DNA of 64,000 nt from Bispira polyomma (GCA_965649765.1 OZ287753.1:47120001-47184000), one strand, 5' to 3'. Shown: positions 21,651 through 39,764, counted from the stretch's first letter. Notes: generated by a model from the letters alone, not told the origin. Numbers and translations: made by a program.

Positions 21651-22171
21651 TACTAGGGACTTAACCTGTAGATATACAGATGACATATTAAAACTCAGTG
21701 TAGGAATTAGTTCAGAAACCTGCATGTTTACTAGGGACTTAGTCTGTAGATATACAGATGACATATTAAAACTCAGTGTAGGAATTAGTTCAGTAACCTG
21801 CATGTTTACTAGGGACTTAACCTGTAGATATACAGATGACATATTAAAACTCAGTGTAGGAATTAGTTCAGTAACCTGCATGTTTACTAGGGACTTAACC
21901 TGTAGATATACAGATGACGTATTAAAACTCAGTGTAGGAATTAGTTCAGTAACCTGCATGTTTACTAGGGATTTAACCTGTAGATATACAGATGACGTAT
22001 TAAAACTCAGTGTAGGAATTAGTTCAGTAACCTGCATGTTTACTAGGGACTTAACCTGTAGATATACAGATGACGTATTAAAACTCAGTGTAGGAATTAG
22101 TTCAGTAACCTGCATGTTTACTAGGGACTTAACCTGTAGATATACAGATGACATATTAAAACTGCAGGAAT
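21651..22171. repeat. 78-bp minisatellite, ~6.6 near-identical copies
   Basis: Units start 21651, 21729, 21807, 21885, 21963, 22041, 22119; explains the repetitive ORFs on both strands. Confidence 0.97.
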
Positions 22172-24824: not shown

Positions 24825-26072
24825 TCACACACAGGTGTCTGAGTAACTACTCGATTTGGGTGCCTCCTCGAAGTTACATATGTTAGAGTAGAGGTTGAAG
24901 TAGTGGTGTCCAGGGCAGCCGTTACCATTACCATTGGCTTGATGACCCGTATTCACCTGTGAATGGTGGGAGTGTGACGACTTAGTGAAGGTAAACCTCT
25001 GTACTGGTTGGGGCTGAATGTTACGACAGAGGATCGCTCTCTGAAACCCTCTGCGGAAGTTTGCCGAGAGGAAGGCGTAGATGATGGGATTGACCGCACT
25101 GTTTCCGTAAGAGAGTACATGTGCAAAGAGTCTGATTGAGAGGAACAAGTAGGTGTTGTTGATGGTGTGTGGGTAGAAGTTTGTCCAGATCCACATCACG
25201 TGTATGGGTAGCCAGGACAGACAAAACACAATGACCACCACAATGATGAGTCGGGTTACTTTACGTTTCTTGTTGATGGACTCCTTCATGCGAGGACCTT
25301 CGGGCTGTTTTGTCAGCCACAGCTGTCTGATAATGAGGACACTGAGCACAAAAATGGCCAGAGAGGGCAGGATATAGCCTAAAATAAACAGCATCAGAAA
25401 GTAGATCTTCCTACGTCCTATCAGATTCCAGTCATCGCTACACAATGGGCCAAATCCCTCATACAGTTGAACTTTGTAGACGATTGGCTGTGGTAGTGCT
25501 ATCGCCAAGGCAATCAACCAGATCACACAGGAAGTAATGAAAGCAACGAGAGGTGTACGCAGGTGCTTGGTTTCAAGTGCGTAGCCCACAGCTAAGTAGC
25601 GATCTGCTGCCATGGCCACCAGGGTCAATATGCTTGCAACCATACTAGAATACTGGACTAAATGTACAAATTTACACATGAACGTCCCGAAGGGCCATGG
25701 AATGGTATAGATGATAGCATGGAAAGGTACGCAGAAGACCAGGAACAGTAAGTCTGCTATGGAGAGGTTTAAGATAAAGAGGTTTGTCGTATTCCGGAAA
25801 TGGTCCCTGTTTCTGACCACCACTATAATCACGATAATGTTTCCTATACAACCAAAAAAAACCACAAACGAGTAGATGACTGGCACAATAATGCGTTCTG
25901 GACCTGGTTCCCAGTCCGTCCCAGAATTCTCCATCACTGCACTGAGGTTAGACTGGTAGTCGTCTATTAACTGGTCACTAGGGGTGACCTCAAGGTCAGG
26001 GGTCCACACCTCTGTATTTCCTGTTTGCTCTGATAAAAGCTTCATGGTATCCAGACTCTCATTGACAGACAT
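24825..26072 (-). CDS. Class A neuropeptide GPCR, galanin/allatostatin-A receptor-like (single coding exon, 415 aa)
   Basis: 7 hydrophobic segments; TM1 GN, TM2 NLSIADLLF...VPF, ECL1 WPFG...CK, TM3 DRY, TM6 WLP, TM7 NSAVNPIIYAFLS.NFR; N-glycosylation sequons NES/NLS; motifs TNLFILNL, CVPF and NPIIYAFLSxNFR typical of GalR/AstA-R. Confidence 0.95.
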   Translation of the reverse strand: MSVNESLDTMKLLSEQTGNTEVWTPDLEVTPSDQLIDDYQSNLSAVMENSGTDWEPGPERIIVPVIYSFVVFFGCIGNIIVIIVVVRNRDHFRNTTNLFILNLSIADLLFLVFCVPFHAIIYTIPWPFGTFMCKFVHLVQYSSMVASILTLVAMAADRYLAVGYALETKHLRTPLVAFITSCVIWLIALAIALPQPIVYKVQLYEGFGPLCSDDWNLIGRRKIYFLMLFILGYILPSLAIFVLSVLIIRQLWLTKQPEGPRMKESINKKRKVTRLIIVVVIVFCLSWLPIHVMWIWTNFYPHTINNTYLFLSIRLFAHVLSYGNSAVNPIIYAFLSANFRRGFQRAILCRNIQPQPVQRFTFTKSSHSHHSQVNTGHQANGNGNGCPGHHYFNLYSNICNFEEAPKSSSYSDTCV

Positions 26073-28383
26073 AGTCGGTGATTATTACATCATTAGTTTA
26101 CAATACTTTTTGTGCTTACTTTTAATGTCTCACAATAAAATAACAGTTTTTTGGGGTGCAGATAAACAATAAACACTCCATTGTTACTGGATAAATATTA
26201 AAAAGAAATAATAATTGTTGCTAGTTAATTACAACCCTCTCTGATCACGATCACAAAATCCCACTGATATTTATTCCTTCAATCGAATCTAGTGCAAGTA
26301 TTATTGTTTCATAAATAAAGCCAAGTATAAGTTTGAAGTAAGAATATTTCCTTGGCTACAGCTTTGCAATAAAGTATATATCTATCCTAGAGCTGACTAT
26401 ATCCCTTTAAACAGCCTCTCTCTGGGGAGAGCTGAAGGCACACTGACTGAAGTACATATCCAGCTTTATCTTATTCCAGCTCAAAGAAAACAGCTCAAGT
26501 TACTCATGTCTTATTTATTGGCAGTATTCCGATCACTCTCACAAATCCTATTGTTTAACAGAGCCCCTTTTTTTATTCAGATATTGAAAACTAATTTATC
26601 CTGCATTTTAGCTCCCAGAGCAAACCAGATCCTTGTGCGGCCTTCTGACATTTTTCACCACCTTTTCTGGAGTTGCGTCTCTAGCCAGATCTTTAAACAA
26701 GCCTCCCAGCCGCCTGTCGAGTGACTTCTGTTCTGACTAAAATTGTGTCTCAGTGTACAGACACTTTCCCTCCTCTCAGCCTATATTGCCCCCCTCTTCT
26801 CTCACCCTCGTTCTACTTAATCCATTCCACTGACTTCACACAATGCCCGGCTGCGTATAAAGCAGAATGCACAGCGTTAATTGAGAAGAACACAGCCTTG
26901 GTGTCTTGACTCGTCCTCTAGGTAATTAGACCAGAAGATGCTGACCACTAAATTAACACATCTTCTGTCTAATGAAGTAAGCAGCACACACACCCTCTCT
27001 CCACACAAACCTACGCTAACAAAACTCTGTCATCTGCATAAGGATGGAGAAACCCTCCTTTCTCTTGAATAGGACCCTTGTTTTAGAAGGGATATAAAAC
27101 CCACACACATTAGTACAGTTGCTTTAATGACGCACCTGGTAGATTAACAAATCTGCAGTGACCGGAACTTGCTGTGGTAGTATTTATTAGTTGTAATTAG
27201 CTACTATCATTAGTGTGTTTCATGATACAACACGCACTGTTACAGAGTTGGTGGTTTTCATTTATACACCACAAGTATACTCAACAGCAGATAAAAGAAG
27301 TATAACAAAATTTATTTAAGGGGAAATATTAAAAAGGAAGCAATGATCTCCTTTAAAATTTCATGATTTATGAGTTTCTCTGTGTCATCACCAAGACCTC
27401 CACTTAGAGTTTTAATTAAAACAAGTGTTACAAAAATACCACTGCCCTTTAAACACACTCAGTGTGTCCTTCATATATTAATTCTACTGAAAAAGTTCAC
27501 CCAGGCTGGAAAATGGCCTTATACAGAATTAATATTTAAGGCAGTAGTTTTCCTAGTTTTATTTTAATCCATCATACACTTGTGTCCCTGTCACTGTTTC
27601 CTTTCCAAGGTCACTGCCCAGGGTAAAATTTGGTGACACCGTTACTGATCTCTAGTTATCCTTCAAAACCACAACAATGGGACACCAGATTTCCTCAATC
27701 CCAAGACCCGACCTTGGTATGAAAAACCCAATTAAAGCAAACCTTCCCGAGGGGATGTATTGCAATTATTGAAGTTTGTCACCACAGGCCAAATGCCTTT
27801 AAGGCGTTAGAAAAAAACTCAGGATAGAAGTACAAATCCACGTTATAATCACCGACGATTTCCATATAGAAGGCAGCAATCTGTCACCAATTGTGAAATG
27901 ACTAAAGTCCAATGATAATAAGGCAATAGATAGAGGTTTTTAGCACAGTTCTAACCAGCGGTAAAATGTCAATTAGAGTCCATTAAGCAGTCCTCTATTG
28001 GTGATGTGCATCCCCATTCACCCACCAGCCACTGATTTCAGGGCAGCAGACTGTGTGTGTGGAGAACTCTGTGTGCTGAGTTTTGGGGGGAGGGGGCTGT
28101 ACTTTATGTGAGATGTGTTCTTTCTAAACGCCTTGCAGAGGATTTCTGGATTTATTGGTCTGCAAATCATGGGAAGTGTTAACTGCAGAGTGTTGTTTTA
28201 GAGGTACAATAGGCCAAATAATAGGCCAAATCAAACTAAATTGTAAGGCATCTGTGATCTATATAGTGATACACCCCAAATGGGTAACCAAGATAGGATA
28301 CAAATAAAACAGGTTCAAATCTGATAAGGTCTTCTGACTTTTTAATAATATTTAGTAAGATATCCAAGTTATGACTTTTCCAG

Positions 28384-30632: not shown

Positions 30633-30967
30633 AGACGAGTGGTTTAAACATATGTATTTCCAATAGGTGTTTTGTGAGATTAGCCATAATTATGTTGCCA
30701 TATTTCAACAATGTTCAATCATGAAATGTACATGGTTTTCAACATATTTCTACGTTCTCTGAATTTTTTCTCAAACATATATTTTTCTGTGACACATAAC
30801 CTATCTCATGTTTTACCTAAACCCGGTAATTGACATGTTCTGGCCACAAAATGTTTAATTAATTAGAGAGATGTTACACAATACCTCCCAAAAATACCAT
30901 CTCAGGTAAACAGATTGGTCACGTAATAGCACCTTGGTACACTTCTGGTCAGTGCTAAACTGTATAA

Positions 30968-31290
30968 ATATACCACAGTTATATCAACAACAAAACTACC
31001 ACAATATACCACAGTTATATCAACAACAAAATTACCACAATATTCCACAGTTATATCAACAACAAAATTACCACAATATTCAACAGTTATATCAACAACA
31101 AAATTACCACAATATTCCACAGTTATATCAACAACAAAACTACCACAATATACCACAGTTATATCAACAACAAAACTACCACAATATACCACAGTTATAT
31201 CAACAACAAAATTACCACAATATTCCACAGTTATATCAACAACAAAACTACAACAATATACCACAGTTATATCAACAACAAAATTCAACA
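30968..31290. repeat. 36-bp minisatellite, ~9 copies
   Basis: Unit caatatwccacagttatatcaacaacaaaaytacca; explains ORFs 30902..31291 and 30934..31371. Confidence 0.97.
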
Positions 31291-32933
31291 ATATTCTCAG
31301 GTTTGTATTTTCGGAAATTTTATGTTCCCATAACTTTCACCTTCCCCGCCTTTAGCAAATTAGAAGCTTAGCAACATCTTCTTAAAAAAAATCACGTTGT
31401 GACTGCAGTGGGACAAATGGGATAGTTGTTTTACATATGGAATTTGGATTTAGGAGAAGAAAATGTCAATGACTTAGAAGGTACAGTGTATGGACGTCTG
31501 GTAATAATTGTCAGTGACGTCACTATAATTGCAGCCTTACTTTTATATGGTCAGTGACGTCACCAGCCTGTCTTTATTTACATAAGGCCAGTGACGACAC
31601 TAGCCACAAACCGTGTTGATATAAGGTCCGTAATATACTTTACATGATGTATAAAGAGCTTATCAGACTCCATGAAGACTCCTGAAATCTTAACAAAGTC
31701 GGACTTAAACTACATGATGTCCTTATAGTAAAACTTTTGTTTTAATAGAGGAGATTTATTTGGGCCATCAAATTGAGAACAAATGTGAATTGATGATATA
31801 CCAAGAGCCTGCCAAAGTAATTTTTTTTAAATAATAAAAGCTGGACATATTGAACAAAGTGACAACAATTGCATAAAAAATATGGCCTATTTTAAAATTC
31901 CATAATAATACCATACTCATACACACTATAATATCCTTGGCTGACCTAATGTAAAGTTTACATGTGAGACTTTATGCCACATTAGAGGCTTATCCATTTC
32001 CTTAATCCAGATTTTCTGCTCTTGTGAACATGGAATACAGGTACAGTAAATGTCATTTAATCCCTAGTTAATGTCACATTTGTACAGTGTTTCCCTTAAG
32101 TATAAGAGCTACATGTCTATGTGTATGTTATAGATTTCTCCCTGTTTAATTGTGTCTTAAAACTGTCGTATCGAGTTTGAACTTTTTCAGTTTGCCAATA
32201 ATTCAGGTGTAAATGTGTTGTTGTAACATCTGTAAAATATCTAAATATGACAAACACCTGGCAAGTACAGGTATCACTACTAGTAGCTTACAATAGATAT
32301 TCTAGCCACCAGATGGTATATGTGAGGCGCAGTGCAAATAAGAACAATAAGAAAGTTTTACCCGTTCCAAACGCCAGAAGATTATACTCTGTTCCAGGTG
32401 CCAAAGGCAGTTTCAAAGGTACAGTTTAGCCCGTTCACAGTAAAACCAGAGCTTAAACTGATCCAGTGACCACTAATGTTTTATATGTTCTAAACGAATT
32501 ATAGAAGCATTATCTGTTCGTGTAGAAGCTGTGCAGCACTTCGTGTCAGTCAGAGCAGCCACACCTTAAAGATCATGTAACCCTGTCACCCCTTAACCTA
32601 TAATTTGTGATCGCCCAAAATGGTTTGTGCTCTGCGGTACGAAATGGGAGTATAAAACCTCATGTTTCAGGGTCTCCTGTGTCATTAAAGTGTTACTGAA
32701 GAGAGAGCTGTTTCTTGGAATCTGCTATTTATGCTTATAATGGCTTGCTAGTCTGATTGCGAGGGGACGTATACTAATTATATCCACGCATAGCGTGTTT
32801 CTTTCTTCACTATCTTGTGAAATTTGAAATCCACAAAATTCGTAAATACGTTCCTCTCACTTGCAAGCATAAGTTGCAGAATCCATTCTTATATTTCTAC
32901 AGATTCATAGACAATTATTGACAAATATACATA

Positions 32934-34137
32934 ATGGCAGCAAAAACGGGATACTGCAAACGATGCAACATAGTTCATTCACGACCTGTGGGGAGACAGT
33001 GTAAACTGGATATAACTGTTGCCAGCACCCCAGCCCCTAGGGGCCGACGTCAAGCGCAGCGAGCTACATGGGAAGTGACCAGTACAACGGAGAAGCAGAG
33101 TAGCAGGACAGACACCCCAGCCGGGGAGCCGGTACCAGTGGGAGACAAACTGAACATTATTCTGGATAAATTAAATCAGCTGGAGAATGACATGAGTGAG
33201 GTTAAAAAAAGAGCAGGGGACTTTAAGACGGACTAAAATGCTAGCACAGGATGTGTCCTCACATAGTTCTCTAGCACGGCAAGGTTACCGGGCTCAATCT
33301 GATGAACTGTACGTGTTTCAATCTGAGACAAGACAGGGTAAAAAAGGTGACCTCGCCTTTGATCCGGAGTATGTGACGAACTACGACGATCTGGATACAG
33401 ATGAAGTGATTCTGCCCAGTCAGAGATTTCTGAAGTCAAATGAGACGATCCAGGCACAAGTGGATAAGCGTTTACAGAGGAACAGATCCCAGTACTACAC
33501 GTCACCTGATAGCGGTAAGAAACTTAAATCAGGGCTTCAACGTACTAATGAACATTCAGTGAAACAAATAATTAATTGGCCCCATGAGCTTTGCTTCAAT
33601 GCAACAGGTAAAAAGCAACCATCTTATCAAGACCTCACCCCTTTAATGTTTTTCCAGGGTTACTTGGGTTGTGTTTTTGAGGAAAAGGATGCAAAAGTGC
33701 GAGATAATATGTTGCAATATGAAATGCAATTAATGAGGGACGGTCTAGAAACCTCGTGGTTTACAGTCAAAAGCGCACATTGCCAAATTATGCTAGAAAT
33801 TGAAAAGGGAAAAGCTAGTTGGAGCAACCTTCCTCAAATACACGAACTCAGGGCCCGTTTGACACAACGTACTCTTAAAGATACTTCTGTTAATGACTCA
33901 GCCCAGGGTAGCAGTTATGCACAAAAAGGGAAACCTAAAAATTCTGTGCTCATGTGTAGTGCATACAACAGAAGGACATGTAGCCAGTCAGATGATCACA
34001 TCTTTGGCTCCATGATATTAAAACACGCCTGTTCGAAATGTTTTAACCAAAATAAGAAAATCCAATTACATAGGGAGAAAGATTGTAGAAAAACTACTGC
34101 TCAAACACGGGATTTCAGTAGGACTAATCAAAACTGA
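32934..34137 (+). pseudogene. gag-like ORF1 of the YR retrotransposon, frameshifted in an A7 run (33204-33210)
   Basis: N-terminal CxxCxxxHxxPxGxxC, coiled coil, GKKLKSG..WPHE motif, C-terminal CxxYN..C..HxCxxC..H..C finger; removing one A joins ORFs 32934 and 33196 (EVKKEQGTLRR). Confidence 0.85.
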
Positions 34138-34458
34138 CAGCCAGTAAAAACTGGAACAGTTTTTGGAACAGTGGCTTTGGTAGGGGCTCAAAAATGTGTG
34201 AAGTTAGGGAACCTGGGGCGAAATTTATAGCACACATGAGAGCAGAAACTGTAAAAGTCATGATAGTTGTAGTACCTGGCTCTATGACCAAGTGGGTCAT
34301 AAGAAGGGTGAAAAAAGTGTTTTAAATGTAAATAAAAATGTAAAAATTATTTCAAAGTATAATATGTGTAGTGGAAATGGTAAAAAGTTTGTCCAGAGGG
34401 CAAGCGAAAGTGTGTATTAAATAGTAGAAGTGGTGATGGTAAAAAGTGCACATATGAA

Positions 34459-36686
34459 GTGGGCTTCCCGCCCTTGCAAAAGAGCAGGAAAATGGCCAGA
34501 AATTGTATAGGTGGATTCCCGCCAAAGAATTCTAACAAACCAATTAGTCCTTTGCAAAACTCTAACAAACAAAGTTTACAAAAAGAAAGTGGTAAACAAG
34601 TTAGCAGTTGTAGTAAACAAAAACAGTTCAACGAGTGTCCTAACAAGGACAAGTTAGCGAGTCGTGTCAAAAGTAGAAGGGTGGCAGTCATTTCCCCCCC
34701 TCCTGAGGTATGGGGCGCGAGGTTGACAGATACAACAAACATAGTGAACAATGTAAGCAGGGTTTCTCCCCCTCGAAGTCAGTCAATCAATTGTCAGGGC
34801 GAACCCCTAATTGCCTCATTTGAAGAGGCTAGTTCACAGAGTGACACCAATGTTCAAAAAACCCTTTCTCCACCCCCCCCCCCCCCTTCTGTAGTCGCAG
34901 TGGAGTGTCAACCAATTAAGGGAATTGGTAAGAGTTGTATAGACCGAATGCGTGGTAAGTCAAGTGACAACTTTGGCTTTCAGTGTATATTTAACTTGGT
35001 GGGTTGTACACCCACGTATACCAATCCAATTGACTTTAACTCGCTAGAGCAATGGGCTCTTGAGGCACACAAAGTGGTGGGTGACTGGGGGGGTCCTAAT
35101 TACTTGGGTGCTCGGGCACCTGTCCCTTCTGAACTCAACATAGCTGCTTGGCATCAGGTATTAATGGGGTATGAAGATAGGTTACTTCCCGAGTACTTAG
35201 AGTTTGGCTTCCCTCTGGACATGATGCATGAACACTTTAAATTTAATGATGACGTCAAGAACCACGACAGTGCAGTTAAGTTCCCAGATAGTGTTGACCA
35301 GTACTTCGTTACGGAAAGGTTACATAAGGCGATAGCAGGTCCTTTTAGTGAAAAGCCATATACGTCTTTGCACTACTCCCCTGTCATGACTAGGCCTAAG
35401 GATGACAATTCTAGAAGACTTATAGTGGACCTATTTTGGCCGCATGACGCTATGTCAGTTAACAGCATGGTAACAGAGGGCAGATATGATGGACAAGATT
35501 TTGTTTTAACTTTACCCACCATAGACATGTTGGTTGACCAAATTAACAAAATTGGCCCTACAGCGAAATTGTACAAGCTGGACCTCTCGAGGGCGTTTCG
35601 AAATTTGAGAATCGACCCGGGTAATTACAAATATACAGGCCTGAAATGGCGCGAAAAAACCTACATAGACCTTGCAGTCATGATGGGATACAAACACGGT
35701 ACGGCGGTTTGTGAGCGAGTAACCGATAGTATCCGCAGGCTAATGAAGACTAAAAACTACAAAATTTGGAACTACATCGACAATCTAGTTGCCGTAGAAG
35801 AAAGTAGTAGGGCCCACAAATTGTACAAATTGATAGAGCATCTTGGTTTACCAATAAATCCCAAGAAAGTATTTTCCCCGGCAGAAGAGGTCATATGCAT
35901 GGGAATACTAGTCAATGCTAAGAAGGGTACCCTTAAAATACCGGATGAGAAATTAAACCAAATAAAGGAAATGTGTAAGTATGGCGAGCAAAGCAAAACT
36001 GCAATAGAAGAGACTTACAATCAATTCTAGGAAAACTTTTGTACATACATCGTTGTGTCGCTCCCGCTAGATTGTTTCTAAACAGAATGCTAAAGTTGCT
36101 CAGGGAAACCTATCCTAGTAAAAGTATTAAACTAACTAGAGGGTTTAAGGCTGATTTGGAATGGTTTAACGAATTTCTGGGTGATTTTAACGGGGTGGTT
36201 GAGATGCATCTCAAGGAAGAGCCAGTGTTGGGACTATATGTAGATGCCTCACTGGTTGGTAGTGGGGCCATGTGGGCGAACAATGTTTATGCCGCAGCTT
36301 TACCAGAACACAAACTTGAGTCATTCGGAATTGTCCATTTTGAGATGTAGAATATTTTGGTGGCACTACGTGTGTGGGGTAAATGTTTCAAAAATTGTAC
36401 AGTAAAGCTGTGGTGTGACAATGGGGCTGTGGTTGCAGGGTTAAATTCTAGTAGATTCTATGACGCAGGCCTTGGTATTATGGCAAGATCCACCTGGTTA
36501 GAAAGTGCTAGAAATAACATAAAATTGGATGTGGTCCATATCGCTGGCATTAAAAATGTACAAGCTGACTACTTGTCGCACATGTTTATTCCAGGGCACA
36601 AAAACAGCAGAGTCCATGAGCAAGTTATGCAGAAAAAGTGGTGGAAAGTCAGCCAAAGCGATGTCACATTAAATACTGAGTTTTAA
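34459..36686 (+). pseudogene. Reverse transcriptase-RNase H (pol) of the YR retrotransposon
   Basis: GFPL, GPF, RLIVDL.WP...SVN, KLDLSRAFRNLRIDP, YIDN (from YxDD), GLPINPKK, MGI; frameshift near 35980 into LQSILGKLLYIHRCV..ARLFLNR; RNase H YVDAS, HFEM*N (TAG 36348), WCDN, NVQADYLS. Confidence 0.92.
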
Positions 36687-36692
36687 TTTCAG

Positions 36693-37672
36693 GTACACCA
36701 ATTCAAATTCTCCTATCTCAAGCAGCCAACGCTAGGCTAGAGTCAGCGATGACTCTCAAGACGCGGCAGGCCTGCAATAATTGTATAAGACTTTTTCTTG
36801 CTTTTGCTGTATTCATTGGAGCTGTGGAGCTGGTGTCCCTGCAGTTTATCCTTCAATTCTGCGAATATCTGCAAATAGCACAACAGGGGCTCAAACCCCC
36901 CTCAATTCAAAACTACTAATCAGCAGTCAAGTACTATTTCCACTTGTGGAATTTTCCTGTGCATGTCTTTGCTCATGCACAGCTAAAACTATTTTTCAAA
37001 TCTCTTACGTTATCTACCCCTTATACACCCAGGTTGAAGGGCATCATAACCATTCCTATTCTAAAATCCATCCTTTACCAGGCCTCTGCTTTTCCACATG
37101 CATACATTTATAAAGCACTATTTGCAACTGCTTTCTTTGGATTTTTCAGATTATCAAATTTAGTCCCCCCTAGTACTTCCCTCTTTAACCCTCAAAGACA
37201 CTTAACGTGTGAAGATTTTATTTGGGGCCCCCCTGGGGTGCACATTGTCCTCAGGTGGGCTAAGAATTTACAAAAATATAATCAGTTTCATGTGGTGCAG
37301 TTGCCTGCTTTAGGATCATCAGTGTTATGCCCCGTGGCAGCACTAAAGGTAATGTTTAAAATAAACGAAAATGTAAAAGAAACTCCAGTTTTTATGTATA
37401 AAGTCAACAGGCAATTAGTGCCCCCCACAGCTTTTAAAGTGCGGCAAGTATTAAGAGAAATTATAGTCTCTTTAGGCTTGAACCTGCAGTCCTTCGGTTT
37501 TCATGCATTTAGACATTCTGGGGCAACTCTAGCGTTTGACAACAACGTGGAGTTGCAATCCATCATGGGTCATGGTGGTTGGCGATCATCAGCAGTATGG
37601 GCCTATCTGCAGTCAACTCTTAATGCCTCTTCAACAGTAGCTAAGTCCCTACAAAAAATAATATTACACTAA
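36693..37672 (+). pseudogene. Tyrosine recombinase of the YR retrotransposon (one in-frame stop at 36917)
   Basis: Frame opens directly after acceptor ttttaatttcag; N-domain ARLESAM..T...FLAF..FCEYL..GLKPPSIQNY*SAVK; catalytic FFGFFRLSN, WAKN, HAFR, GHGGWRSSAVWAY. Confidence 0.92.
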
Positions 37673-39764
37673 AAATTCTATGGCGTTTGGGCATTGTAAT
37701 ATGTACATAGTTTTAGTACTTTGTAAGCTAGTTTCTATCTTACAGTTTAAAATAGAATTTCACCTTTACCTTAAAAGGTTACACATTAAGGTAACCTAAA
37801 CATAAACTTGTAAGTTAACCTTAAAGTCAAGGTAATGTTTAAGGTCACCTTAACAAGTGGCTATTTGTAAAAATCATCAGATATATAATTTAGGATGACC
37901 TTAAGTCATCTGCTTAACATTATTTTAAGGTGACCCTAAGTCACCCCTCTTCAAACCTAAAAGAAAATGTTTTAAAAAATCATCATTGTAAATTTAATTT
38001 AAGGTGACCTTAAGTCACCCTCTTCTTTGCCTAAGGTAAAGGTTAACTGTATAATGTTTATATGTGTGGTGACCTTAAAATTTGCAAGGTCACGGTTGTG
38101 ATGTAATGAAATATGTAAAATGTACTAACCATGTTAACAATAGATGTTAGTGTAGATTTGTATTTAATAAATGCCCAAAGAGATACGCCAATGCATTTCA
38201 TTCCATTGTCTATATCACTTTGCACAATACTCAGGGGTGGCCACGTTGACTGATGGAATTTTGTCATTTTCCTAGTGATTATGAAGGTCTGATCTGACCA
38301 AAAGATTGTTAAAGTTTAATCTGATCCAAGTCATTTATTAAGTTGGTCTGTTCTTGCTGCTTATTTAAGGTTTATCTGTTTATGTGGTTATAAAAGTGTT
38401 CTGATCCAGGTGATTGTAAAATTTATGTTTTATCTGTTTTATTTGATTATGAAAGTGATCTGATCCAGGTGATTGTTTTTCCTGAAAGTTTAAGTAACTC
38501 ATTATCATTCTGCTTTGTGTTGTTACCAAGGGCAGACTTATCTAATGCATTTTGTACCAACATATTAAAGTTTGTTGTAAGAAATGCTGAAACTAGTAAA
38601 CTGCACATGTCGACAAATAGGACCACAATATATTTAATTTGAGATGTTTAAATAAATGATTACAAAATAGTTGGGTAAAAAACTAATTGACAAATTACTA
38701 ATTTCCCTTTCAAGTAAAAACCCTAATTACATCCCTAGAAACTACTGCAGACGTCAAAAGTGTCAAGCAAGATCAACAGCTTCTAGTTAGGGCAACAATA
38801 GCTAGCACACTCCACCATAGCCTATTGTAACACCTTATGTAAAATGTATAAAAACATCATCGTTATTAAAAGAAGGTCTTGTTCAAACAATGAGATGCAA
38901 TAAGCTGTATTTATGGACTCCAACACATGTTGTGCTAACAGAGCCAATGGATTAAGTCAATAGAAGCTGGTGATTGCTGTTACTTGTTAGGTTGTGTTTC
39001 CGGTGGTTTTAACTGCACAAACATATAGTACAGCACTTTATAGATGAGACTGCATGAGATAAAACAGAATTTATTATTCGACCTTGAGCCCGAAATATTA
39101 AGTATTTACAGTTGCTTTGTGGTTTCTTTTTCCAGTTCTTTAACCATAAAATAGATAAGAGTAAAAAATAATGCACATAATAAACTTGTAGATACAGGAA
39201 AGAACTTTTATACTTGACCTTCAGTCAGTAGTTGACAAAAACAACGGATAGAGTAGGTTTAAGTTGGGTTGCATCAAAAATCCTTACATTAAGCCCACTA
39301 ACATTTTAGTAGGAGTGTACCTAAGAATAAAAAGCAAACCCTGGATTGAAGCACTTTATTACATTAGTACACCAGTGAGGCATATTTAACAAAACTTCAA
39401 TCATTTTTACTCCAGAGATTAGATTGCTTTTCCTGTTTTGGAGTTTTAGTTATATATAAAGGACCTTTTTATGGTTGTAAAAGCACTGCTAACTTTGTTG
39501 TGGTTTCCTTTGTATAAAGGAAGCAGTCTTCACAAGTACACACAGACTTACTTACACCGTGTACAATACATCTATTGTAATACGTAGATTTAAATTTATT
39601 ATAGATTGTGATTCAAATTCATCAACACAACATATTGGTTCTTGGAATCTATAAGTCATTTGAAGACCTTCAAGCATTACCTCAATTTTTGAAATGGAAT
39701 TCAGACTATAGCAAATTGATTGTGGGCTGAGTCAACATATTCTTGGTTCTGACTGTGTAGTGTT

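Follow-up and report, generated by a model that had tools for sequence, protein, structure and literature searches.

The DNA considered here, a stretch of 64,000 nucleotides (nt) from Bispira polyomma (GCA_965649765.1 OZ287753.1:47120001-47184000; hereafter the window), carries on its plus strand, at 32520-38252, a decayed copy of an Ngaro-like tyrosine-recombinase (YR) retrotransposon, both ends of which are common to sister copies. Its parts follow one another in the order A1-gag-pol-YR-B, without A2-B2: an A1 repeat (approximately 32520-32714, with TATAAAA at 32651) that matches the internal A2 of the relatives L067 and L056, a gag gene (32934-34137; about 400 codons in unbroken relatives) for which no Pfam match was obtained, a pol gene that codes for reverse transcriptase (RT) as well as RNase H (RH; 34138-36686), the recombinase frame, and a B repeat region (approximately 37690-38252, with AATAAA at 38166), which is repeated as B2 in L067 and L051. 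Comparison of this copy with its relatives suggests that the family very probably produces its recombinase from an mRNA that is spliced to encode Gag(N)-YR in about 520 codons and in which a conserved donor in gag would be joined to a conserved acceptor at the start of YR.

Pfam matches to RVT_1, RT_RNaseH and Phage_integrase were found on the window and its relatives, i.e., the combination of RT, RNase H and YR that marks the DIRS order, and no Pfam match to a DDE integrase or a protease was obtained on either. The catalytic motifs of the recombinase (R, K, H-x-x-R, H and Y) are conserved. The order of the open reading frames (ORFs), i.e., gag, RT/RH and YR, is that of Ngaro-like elements; pol ends about 45 residues past the last RNase H motif, and the five pol proteins searched gave no Pfam match to a methyltransferase (MT) domain after RNase H. 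Split direct repeats of the form A1-ORFs-B1-A2-B2 occur in the relatives L101-L104, L079, L070, L072, L085, L098, L064, L051 and L067, and relatives thus match the Ngaro definition (gag, RT/RH, YR; no MT; A1-ORFs-B1-A2-B2) as given in the accessible portions of PMC9210276 and PMC4157794. In the window copy, as in the seven sisters nearest to it (L031-L037), A1 is accompanied by a single B, without A2-B2 and hence without split repeats. Since single-B copies (L099, L100) stand beside full copies in family F1, loss of A2-B2 by recombination between B1 and B2 is likely. Placed by its ORF order, its domains and the repeats of its relatives, the window copy is classed as a derivative of an Ngaro-like family. 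It differs from DIRS1-like elements, as neither a terminal inverted repeat nor an MT match was found in the window element, and also from PAT-like elements, which combine split direct repeats with an MT domain (PMC4157794, in its accessible portion). Visual inspection of 13 flank pairs, without scoring, showed no obvious target-site duplication.

Some further features of these copies were noted on the way. All examined copies of the window's family stop after one B; younger families show both forms. The young family L101-L104 comprises at least 15 copies that do not differ in their first 60 YR residues, and in its members a unique stretch of about 570 nt separates A2 from B2. In the tail of the window element (37740-38050) there is a cluster of short palindromic words of the AAGGTGACCTT type.

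The window copy is dead. Near 33204, an additional base shifts the gag frame and results in a stop at 33234-33236, upstream of the donor; pol is broken by several indels and a stop at 36348-36350, and YR contains a premature stop at 36917-36919. Because of the gag frameshift and the YR stop, this copy is unable to make a fusion, and the question of splicing concerns the family. The spliced gag-YR fusion put forward in a preliminary description of the locus is accordingly supported by comparison for the family, with the first of two proposed donors, but not for the decayed window copy itself.

Three motifs named in that description were found where it had placed them, and all are in phase 1: a donor, AGCG/GTAAGA (the slash marks the splice point), after 33514, a second candidate donor, ACAG/GTAAAA, after 33607, and an acceptor, TTTTAATTTCAG/GTACAC, ending at 36692, the AG of which ends 6 nt downstream of the pol stop (36684-36686). 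The first donor, G/GTAAG (33514-33520), lies within Gly-Lys codons of gag, and the acceptor region (36675-36694; YAG/GT) has a short T-rich tract and, in relatives, a branch-like YTRAY. Exon 1 of the predicted fusion, the coding exon shared with Gag, would cover 32934-33514, i.e., the N-terminal half of gag with its CxxC-H-C motif, heptad helix and second helix (frameshifted here near 33204), and would be followed by a predicted intron of 3178 nt (33515-36692) that comprises the C-terminal half of gag and all of pol. Predicted exon 2 (36693-37672, with the stop at 36917-36919) is the tyrosine recombinase. It had also been claimed that the YR frame opens exactly at the acceptor; the acceptor is there, but the frame itself, which is -1 relative to pol, is open already from 36680 and shares 7 nt with the end of pol. 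Its first in-frame ATG, previously given as about 36748, is at 36749.

Relatives were taken from the 1.04-Gb genome, in which 11,884 YR candidates were found and 150 scored. Ninety-nine ten-kb loci were taken, and together with the window 94 of 100 were mapped at the YR start. These 94 loci form 38 families at 88% YR DNA identity and are, outside the window's own family, 45-79% identical to the window. For codon conservation, each family was represented by its majority codon, and a site was counted if it could be mapped in 15 families or more and kept its residue in 75%; this left 168 fourfold-degenerate sites, spread over the C-half of gag, the RT and RNase H parts of pol, and YR. Only two of these were codon-invariant at 90% or more, both of them Gly codons with the form GGT, that of the donor in 24 of 25 families and that of the acceptor in 25 of 25; the next most invariant site reached 0.85 and the median was 0.47, and GGT makes up 28% of the other Gly codons (213/761, the acceptor counted in). 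For the Lys following the donor, 24 of 25 families use AAG vs. a background of 37% (337/907), and among 227 twofold sites eight others are as invariant as this Lys, all of them ending in A or T. Parsimony on a tree of the 94 loci required no change at the acceptor Gly and one at the donor Gly, the next lowest value being 4 and the median 12 (158 sites). The residues around the donor Gly-Lys are variable (ESGKK, EQGKP, ELGKK, EHGKR, EPGKL). Donor 1 and the acceptor are, in short, constrained beyond chance.

The same picture emerged from the splice motifs. GTAAG is the majority donor form in 24 of 27 families, and no GTR other than the donor is conserved where gag could be mapped; pol has three further GTR words that are conserved, and these are explained by Cys or Trp codons. 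In 80 further gag loci, G/GTAAG was kept in 63, present as a variant in 2 and absent from 15. At the other end, YAG/G lies no more than 8 nt from the mapped YR start in 82 of the 94 loci (YAG/GT in 80), and it is kept regardless of the spacer between pol stop and acceptor, which varies both in length (6-19 nt) and in sequence. The check proposed beforehand, i.e., conservation of the motifs among copies, was therefore passed by the acceptor and the first donor, and the second donor (33607-33613) drops out as a candidate, its GT being kept in only 15 of 28 families. Between -35 and -11, a YTRAY is present in 22 of 33 families vs. 590 of 2806 control YAG sites (21%), which is partly due to the pol stop. 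Taken together, DNA comparison provides the features of a spliceosomal GT-AG intron: donor, acceptor, matching phase and selective constraint. As a side observation, the pol stop (36684-36686 in the window) forms a YTRAY 12-20 nt before the acceptor in many families and may double as branch point.

For the translation of a DIRS-order YR behind pol, a -1 frameshift is the only proposal that we found in print. According to Poulter and Butler (2015), as quoted in the accessible portion of PMC13003380, the YR of Ngaro lies in the -1 frame relative to RT/RH, with an overlap, and frameshifting is its probable mode of translation. If ribosomes entered YR where pol ends, by a programmed -1 frameshift (or by readthrough), a Gag-Pol-YR protein would result, and 11 of 26 families, the window's included, indeed have YR in the -1 frame with an overlap; moreover, two long protein hits (P0242, P0245) represent RT-RH-YR chains of distant elements. 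However, YR is in the +1 frame relative to pol in 8 and in frame 0 in 7 of these families. A few of the 26 are single decayed copies, and the multi-copy families are internally consistent (F0 +1, 11 copies; F1 0, 10; F2 -1, 7; F4 +1, 4; F7 +1, 4; F9 0, 3), F0, F1, F7 and F9 among the 15 deviating families being unbroken. Since the frame differs in this way across families, no single recoding event serves all, and the phase of the acceptor is constant although the frame to pol changes. A frameshift would further have to cope with a gap of 334 nt in L130 and leaves the invariant donor 3 kb upstream unexplained. It is refuted as a general mechanism, and we consider it highly unlikely as the route to YR. 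In fungal Ngaros, both same-frame and shifted YR ORFs were noted before (PMC3783388, accessible portion).

A start codon within YR fares no better across the group. The unbroken YR frames, 35 in number, have their first Met 17-218 codons past the acceptor (the youngest family at 99, three families at 218), so that the internal ATG, present at 36749 in the window, fails as a general YR start; because the frame varies and the first Met is this far in, neither the -1 frameshift nor the internal ATG works group-wide. A structural model of the YR frame from the acceptor onwards (predicted local distance difference test score, pLDDT, 88.4) has its first helix at residues 3-17, ahead of Met 20 of the window family, and the Pfam N-terminal SAM-like domain is located at 19-82. 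The model resembles Cre over its whole length (template modelling score, TM, 0.70-0.74; 11-13% identity; PDB 1pvr, 4crx, 5u91), and, as modelled, a complete Cre-like fold starts precisely at the acceptor, with the first residues of exon 2.

These data bear on a further option, in which the acceptor is real but joined to another donor, be it one in a leader that is non-coding or one in an exon of the host, or in which YR is translated from an internal AUG on an RNA of its own, the gag motif being constrained for other reasons. The Met at YR residue 20 in the window family would suit the latter, and the gag N-half and 5' untranslated region align too poorly for the conservation scan to exclude an upstream donor. 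Starting at the first Met would, however, cost the N-terminal domain in four families in which it is found at 99-218, and Met 20 falls after the first modelled helix. Another donor is also at variance with the phase match between donor and acceptor in every clade examined, and we regard this option as a whole as very unlikely.

Support for the splicing of a Gag(N)-YR mRNA also comes from distant clades. A held-out clade, fetched after the analysis (19 loci in about four families, 38-44% YR identity), has CAAG/GTAAAA at the homologous gag Gly in 15 of 19 loci and YAG/G or CAG/A at the YR start in 16 of 19; in frames with a Met ahead of the first stop, the first YR Met is found at 39-102. In a single metagenome record, three contigs (37-42% identity) all possess a phase-1 acceptor, and the two of them with gag show CAAG/GTAATT and TCAG/GTAATA after the same helix. 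The metagenome contig L130 contains both splice signals, with the 334 nt mentioned above between pol stop and acceptor. Among database homologues, 34 of 107 reach far enough upstream, and of the 35 hits that an acceptor-like residue pattern gave in them, 33 lie 21-25 residues before a conserved Thr (23 in the window), which is indirect evidence. No relative was found among viral contigs.

Alternatively, both motifs could be RNA or DNA signals that resemble splice sites and are unrelated to splicing, serving e.g., packaging, a template jump or protein binding. The occurrence of GGT at both sites in the near clades is compatible with this, as is the position of the constrained acceptor base at exon +2. 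In the distant clade, however, the donor is CAAG/GTAAAA and the acceptor TAG/GC or CAG/A, i.e., splice consensus and phase are kept without a shared word, and the enrichment of YTRAY upstream of the acceptor, in part a product of the pol stop, likewise argues for splice sites. Such a signal unrelated to splicing appears extremely unlikely.

Several observations nonetheless weigh against the spliced fusion. No intron-less copy was found in 65 loci with both sites and in the 80 further gag loci, with 150 candidates scored out of each of three sets (11,884, 702 and 1,261). Three degenerate junction patterns gave 0 matches (exact matches only, three sub-groups covered), and the donor-acceptor joint was absent among 15 of 60 joints on the window and 14 on L102, which derive from DNA-like contigs (X1-X3) of one study that span genomic flanks. 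Likewise, no fused Gag-YR protein was found in the protein databases searched, which mostly hold unspliced gene calls. The polypyrimidine tract is short and weak, with 5-10 pyrimidines of 12 and a control mean of 6.1. The invariant base of the acceptor is exon +2, which is no obligatory splice base and is a C in most of the distant clade; splice acceptors favour AG/GU. Finally, YR and pol share 7 nt, with YR in the -1 frame, in the window's family and also in the distant clade (L244), an arrangement that the frameshift model predicts, so that frame alone does not argue against frameshifting in L244.

A YR frame of 538 amino acids at C4:13986055 was considered as an intron-less copy and rejected, as it corresponds to an internal tandem duplication joining the front of YR in frame to gag. 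This duplication, in L243/L244 (G000:C4, about 13.983-13.991 Mb), measures 3.9 kb and is 100% identical and possibly an assembly artefact.

In the predicted fusion, Gag would contribute 182-259 residues and YR about 320, giving a total of about 520 codons (519 in one sister). The Gag half would retain the CxxC-H-C motif, the heptad helix and the second helix, and its C-terminal domain and a Cys/His cluster would be dropped; the Gag model was of low confidence (pLDDT 50.5) and was used for helix positions alone. Pol, which would be absent from this product, has no early Met, and its junction with gag occurs in two forms. The first is an in-frame UGA CAG CCA (F2, F3, F8, F13; UGA-C in F0 and F4), which in the window occupies 34135-34143 (plus strand), is in frame with pol in sisters, and is likely a readthrough signal of the CARYYA type (described in the accessible portion of PMC3542737). 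In the second, the two frames overlap at -1 and share a conserved GGAAAAC, which would be a slippery word of non-canonical type (F1, F6, F9). A short (F/I)WN peptide motif follows both forms, before any pol Met. A splice acceptor at the pol start was rejected: CCAG recurs there in phase, but with a purine-rich run upstream. No YYNYAG at the pol start reached 60% of families in the mapped segments, the N-terminus of pol being poorly mapped; as no conserved pol acceptor was seen, recoding is preferred for pol.

These findings can be combined into a scheme with one promoter, likely in A1. Its unspliced RNA would be translated into Gag and also serve as the genome, and Gag-Pol would be made from this RNA by stop readthrough in the window's clade and by -1 frameshifting in the sister clade. 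Removal of a regulated intron would fuse the N-terminal half of Gag to the whole YR. The shared Gag half, with its zinc-binding-like motif and heptad helix, would supply the start codon and could carry the recombinase along into Gag particles or direct it to the target. Splicing efficiency would set the dose of recombinase, and the spliced RNA, lacking pol, would seemingly be copied seldom. Whether a broad animal branch of Ngaro-like elements follows such a three-way programme from one promoter, i.e., Gag, a recoded Gag-Pol and, by an ancient intron, a Gag(N)-recombinase packaged and aimed by its Gag half, is evenly balanced; if so, the frameshift model for the superfamily would be overturned.

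Apart from the retrotransposon, the window contains an intronless frame of 418 amino acids for a rhodopsin-family G protein-coupled receptor (24825-26081, minus strand; Pfam 7tm_1, E 2e-61), and two tandem arrays, one at 30967-31294 (36-nt unit, 9 copies) and one at 21651-22163 (78-nt unit, 6.6 copies).

If true, the fusion would have consequences for the annotation and assay of very abundant elements, given more than 11,000 YR candidates in this genome, as the integration enzyme would be a protein of about 520 residues that includes half of Gag. ORF1 goes with the integration preference of Ngaro elements in Cafeteria (PMC8547959, accessible portion), and a Gag half that aims the recombinase would offer a mechanism for it. 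It would also represent a retroelement in which the integration enzyme, rather than Gag or Env, derives from spliced RNA. In the open-access literature, which formed the scope of our search (subscription papers, Repbase and supplements lying outside it), no report of spliced YR expression in DIRS-order elements was found; the accessible portions of PMC7192593, PMC4157794, PMC8547959, PMC3783388, PMC6681497, PMC9210276, PMC13003380, PMC9341512, PMC2632668 and bioRxiv 2022.06.16.496473 report no splicing of YR.

Spliced expression of retroelements as such is already known, but neither plant Copia nor foamy virus splicing yields what is predicted here, an integration enzyme fused to Gag with RT skipped. 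With the described Ngaro-like elements (PMC9210276, PMC4157794, PMC8547959, PMC3783388), the relatives share the ORF order, the lack of an MT and the A1-ORFs-B1-A2-B2 structure; splicing is not mentioned in the accessible portions of these articles, whereas a conserved intron enclosing pol is predicted here, and the examined copies of the window's family are without A2-B2. Retroviral env is also reached by splicing. In plant Ty1/Copia elements, a conserved alternative splice likewise sets protein ratios by way of a spliced subgenomic RNA, but, according to the accessible portion of the report, this RNA yields Gag only (PMC5580714), whereas here it would yield a Gag(N)-recombinase fusion that skips pol. 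Similarly, the spliced pol mRNA of foamy viruses (PMC3705302, accessible portion) makes a downstream enzyme gene available via splicing instead of recoding; foamy Pol, however, has no Gag sequence and includes RT, whereas in the present elements only the integration enzyme would be spliced, keeping about 180-260 Gag residues. Cre, the fold of which is predicted for exon 2, is itself a stand-alone phage enzyme without such a Gag extension.

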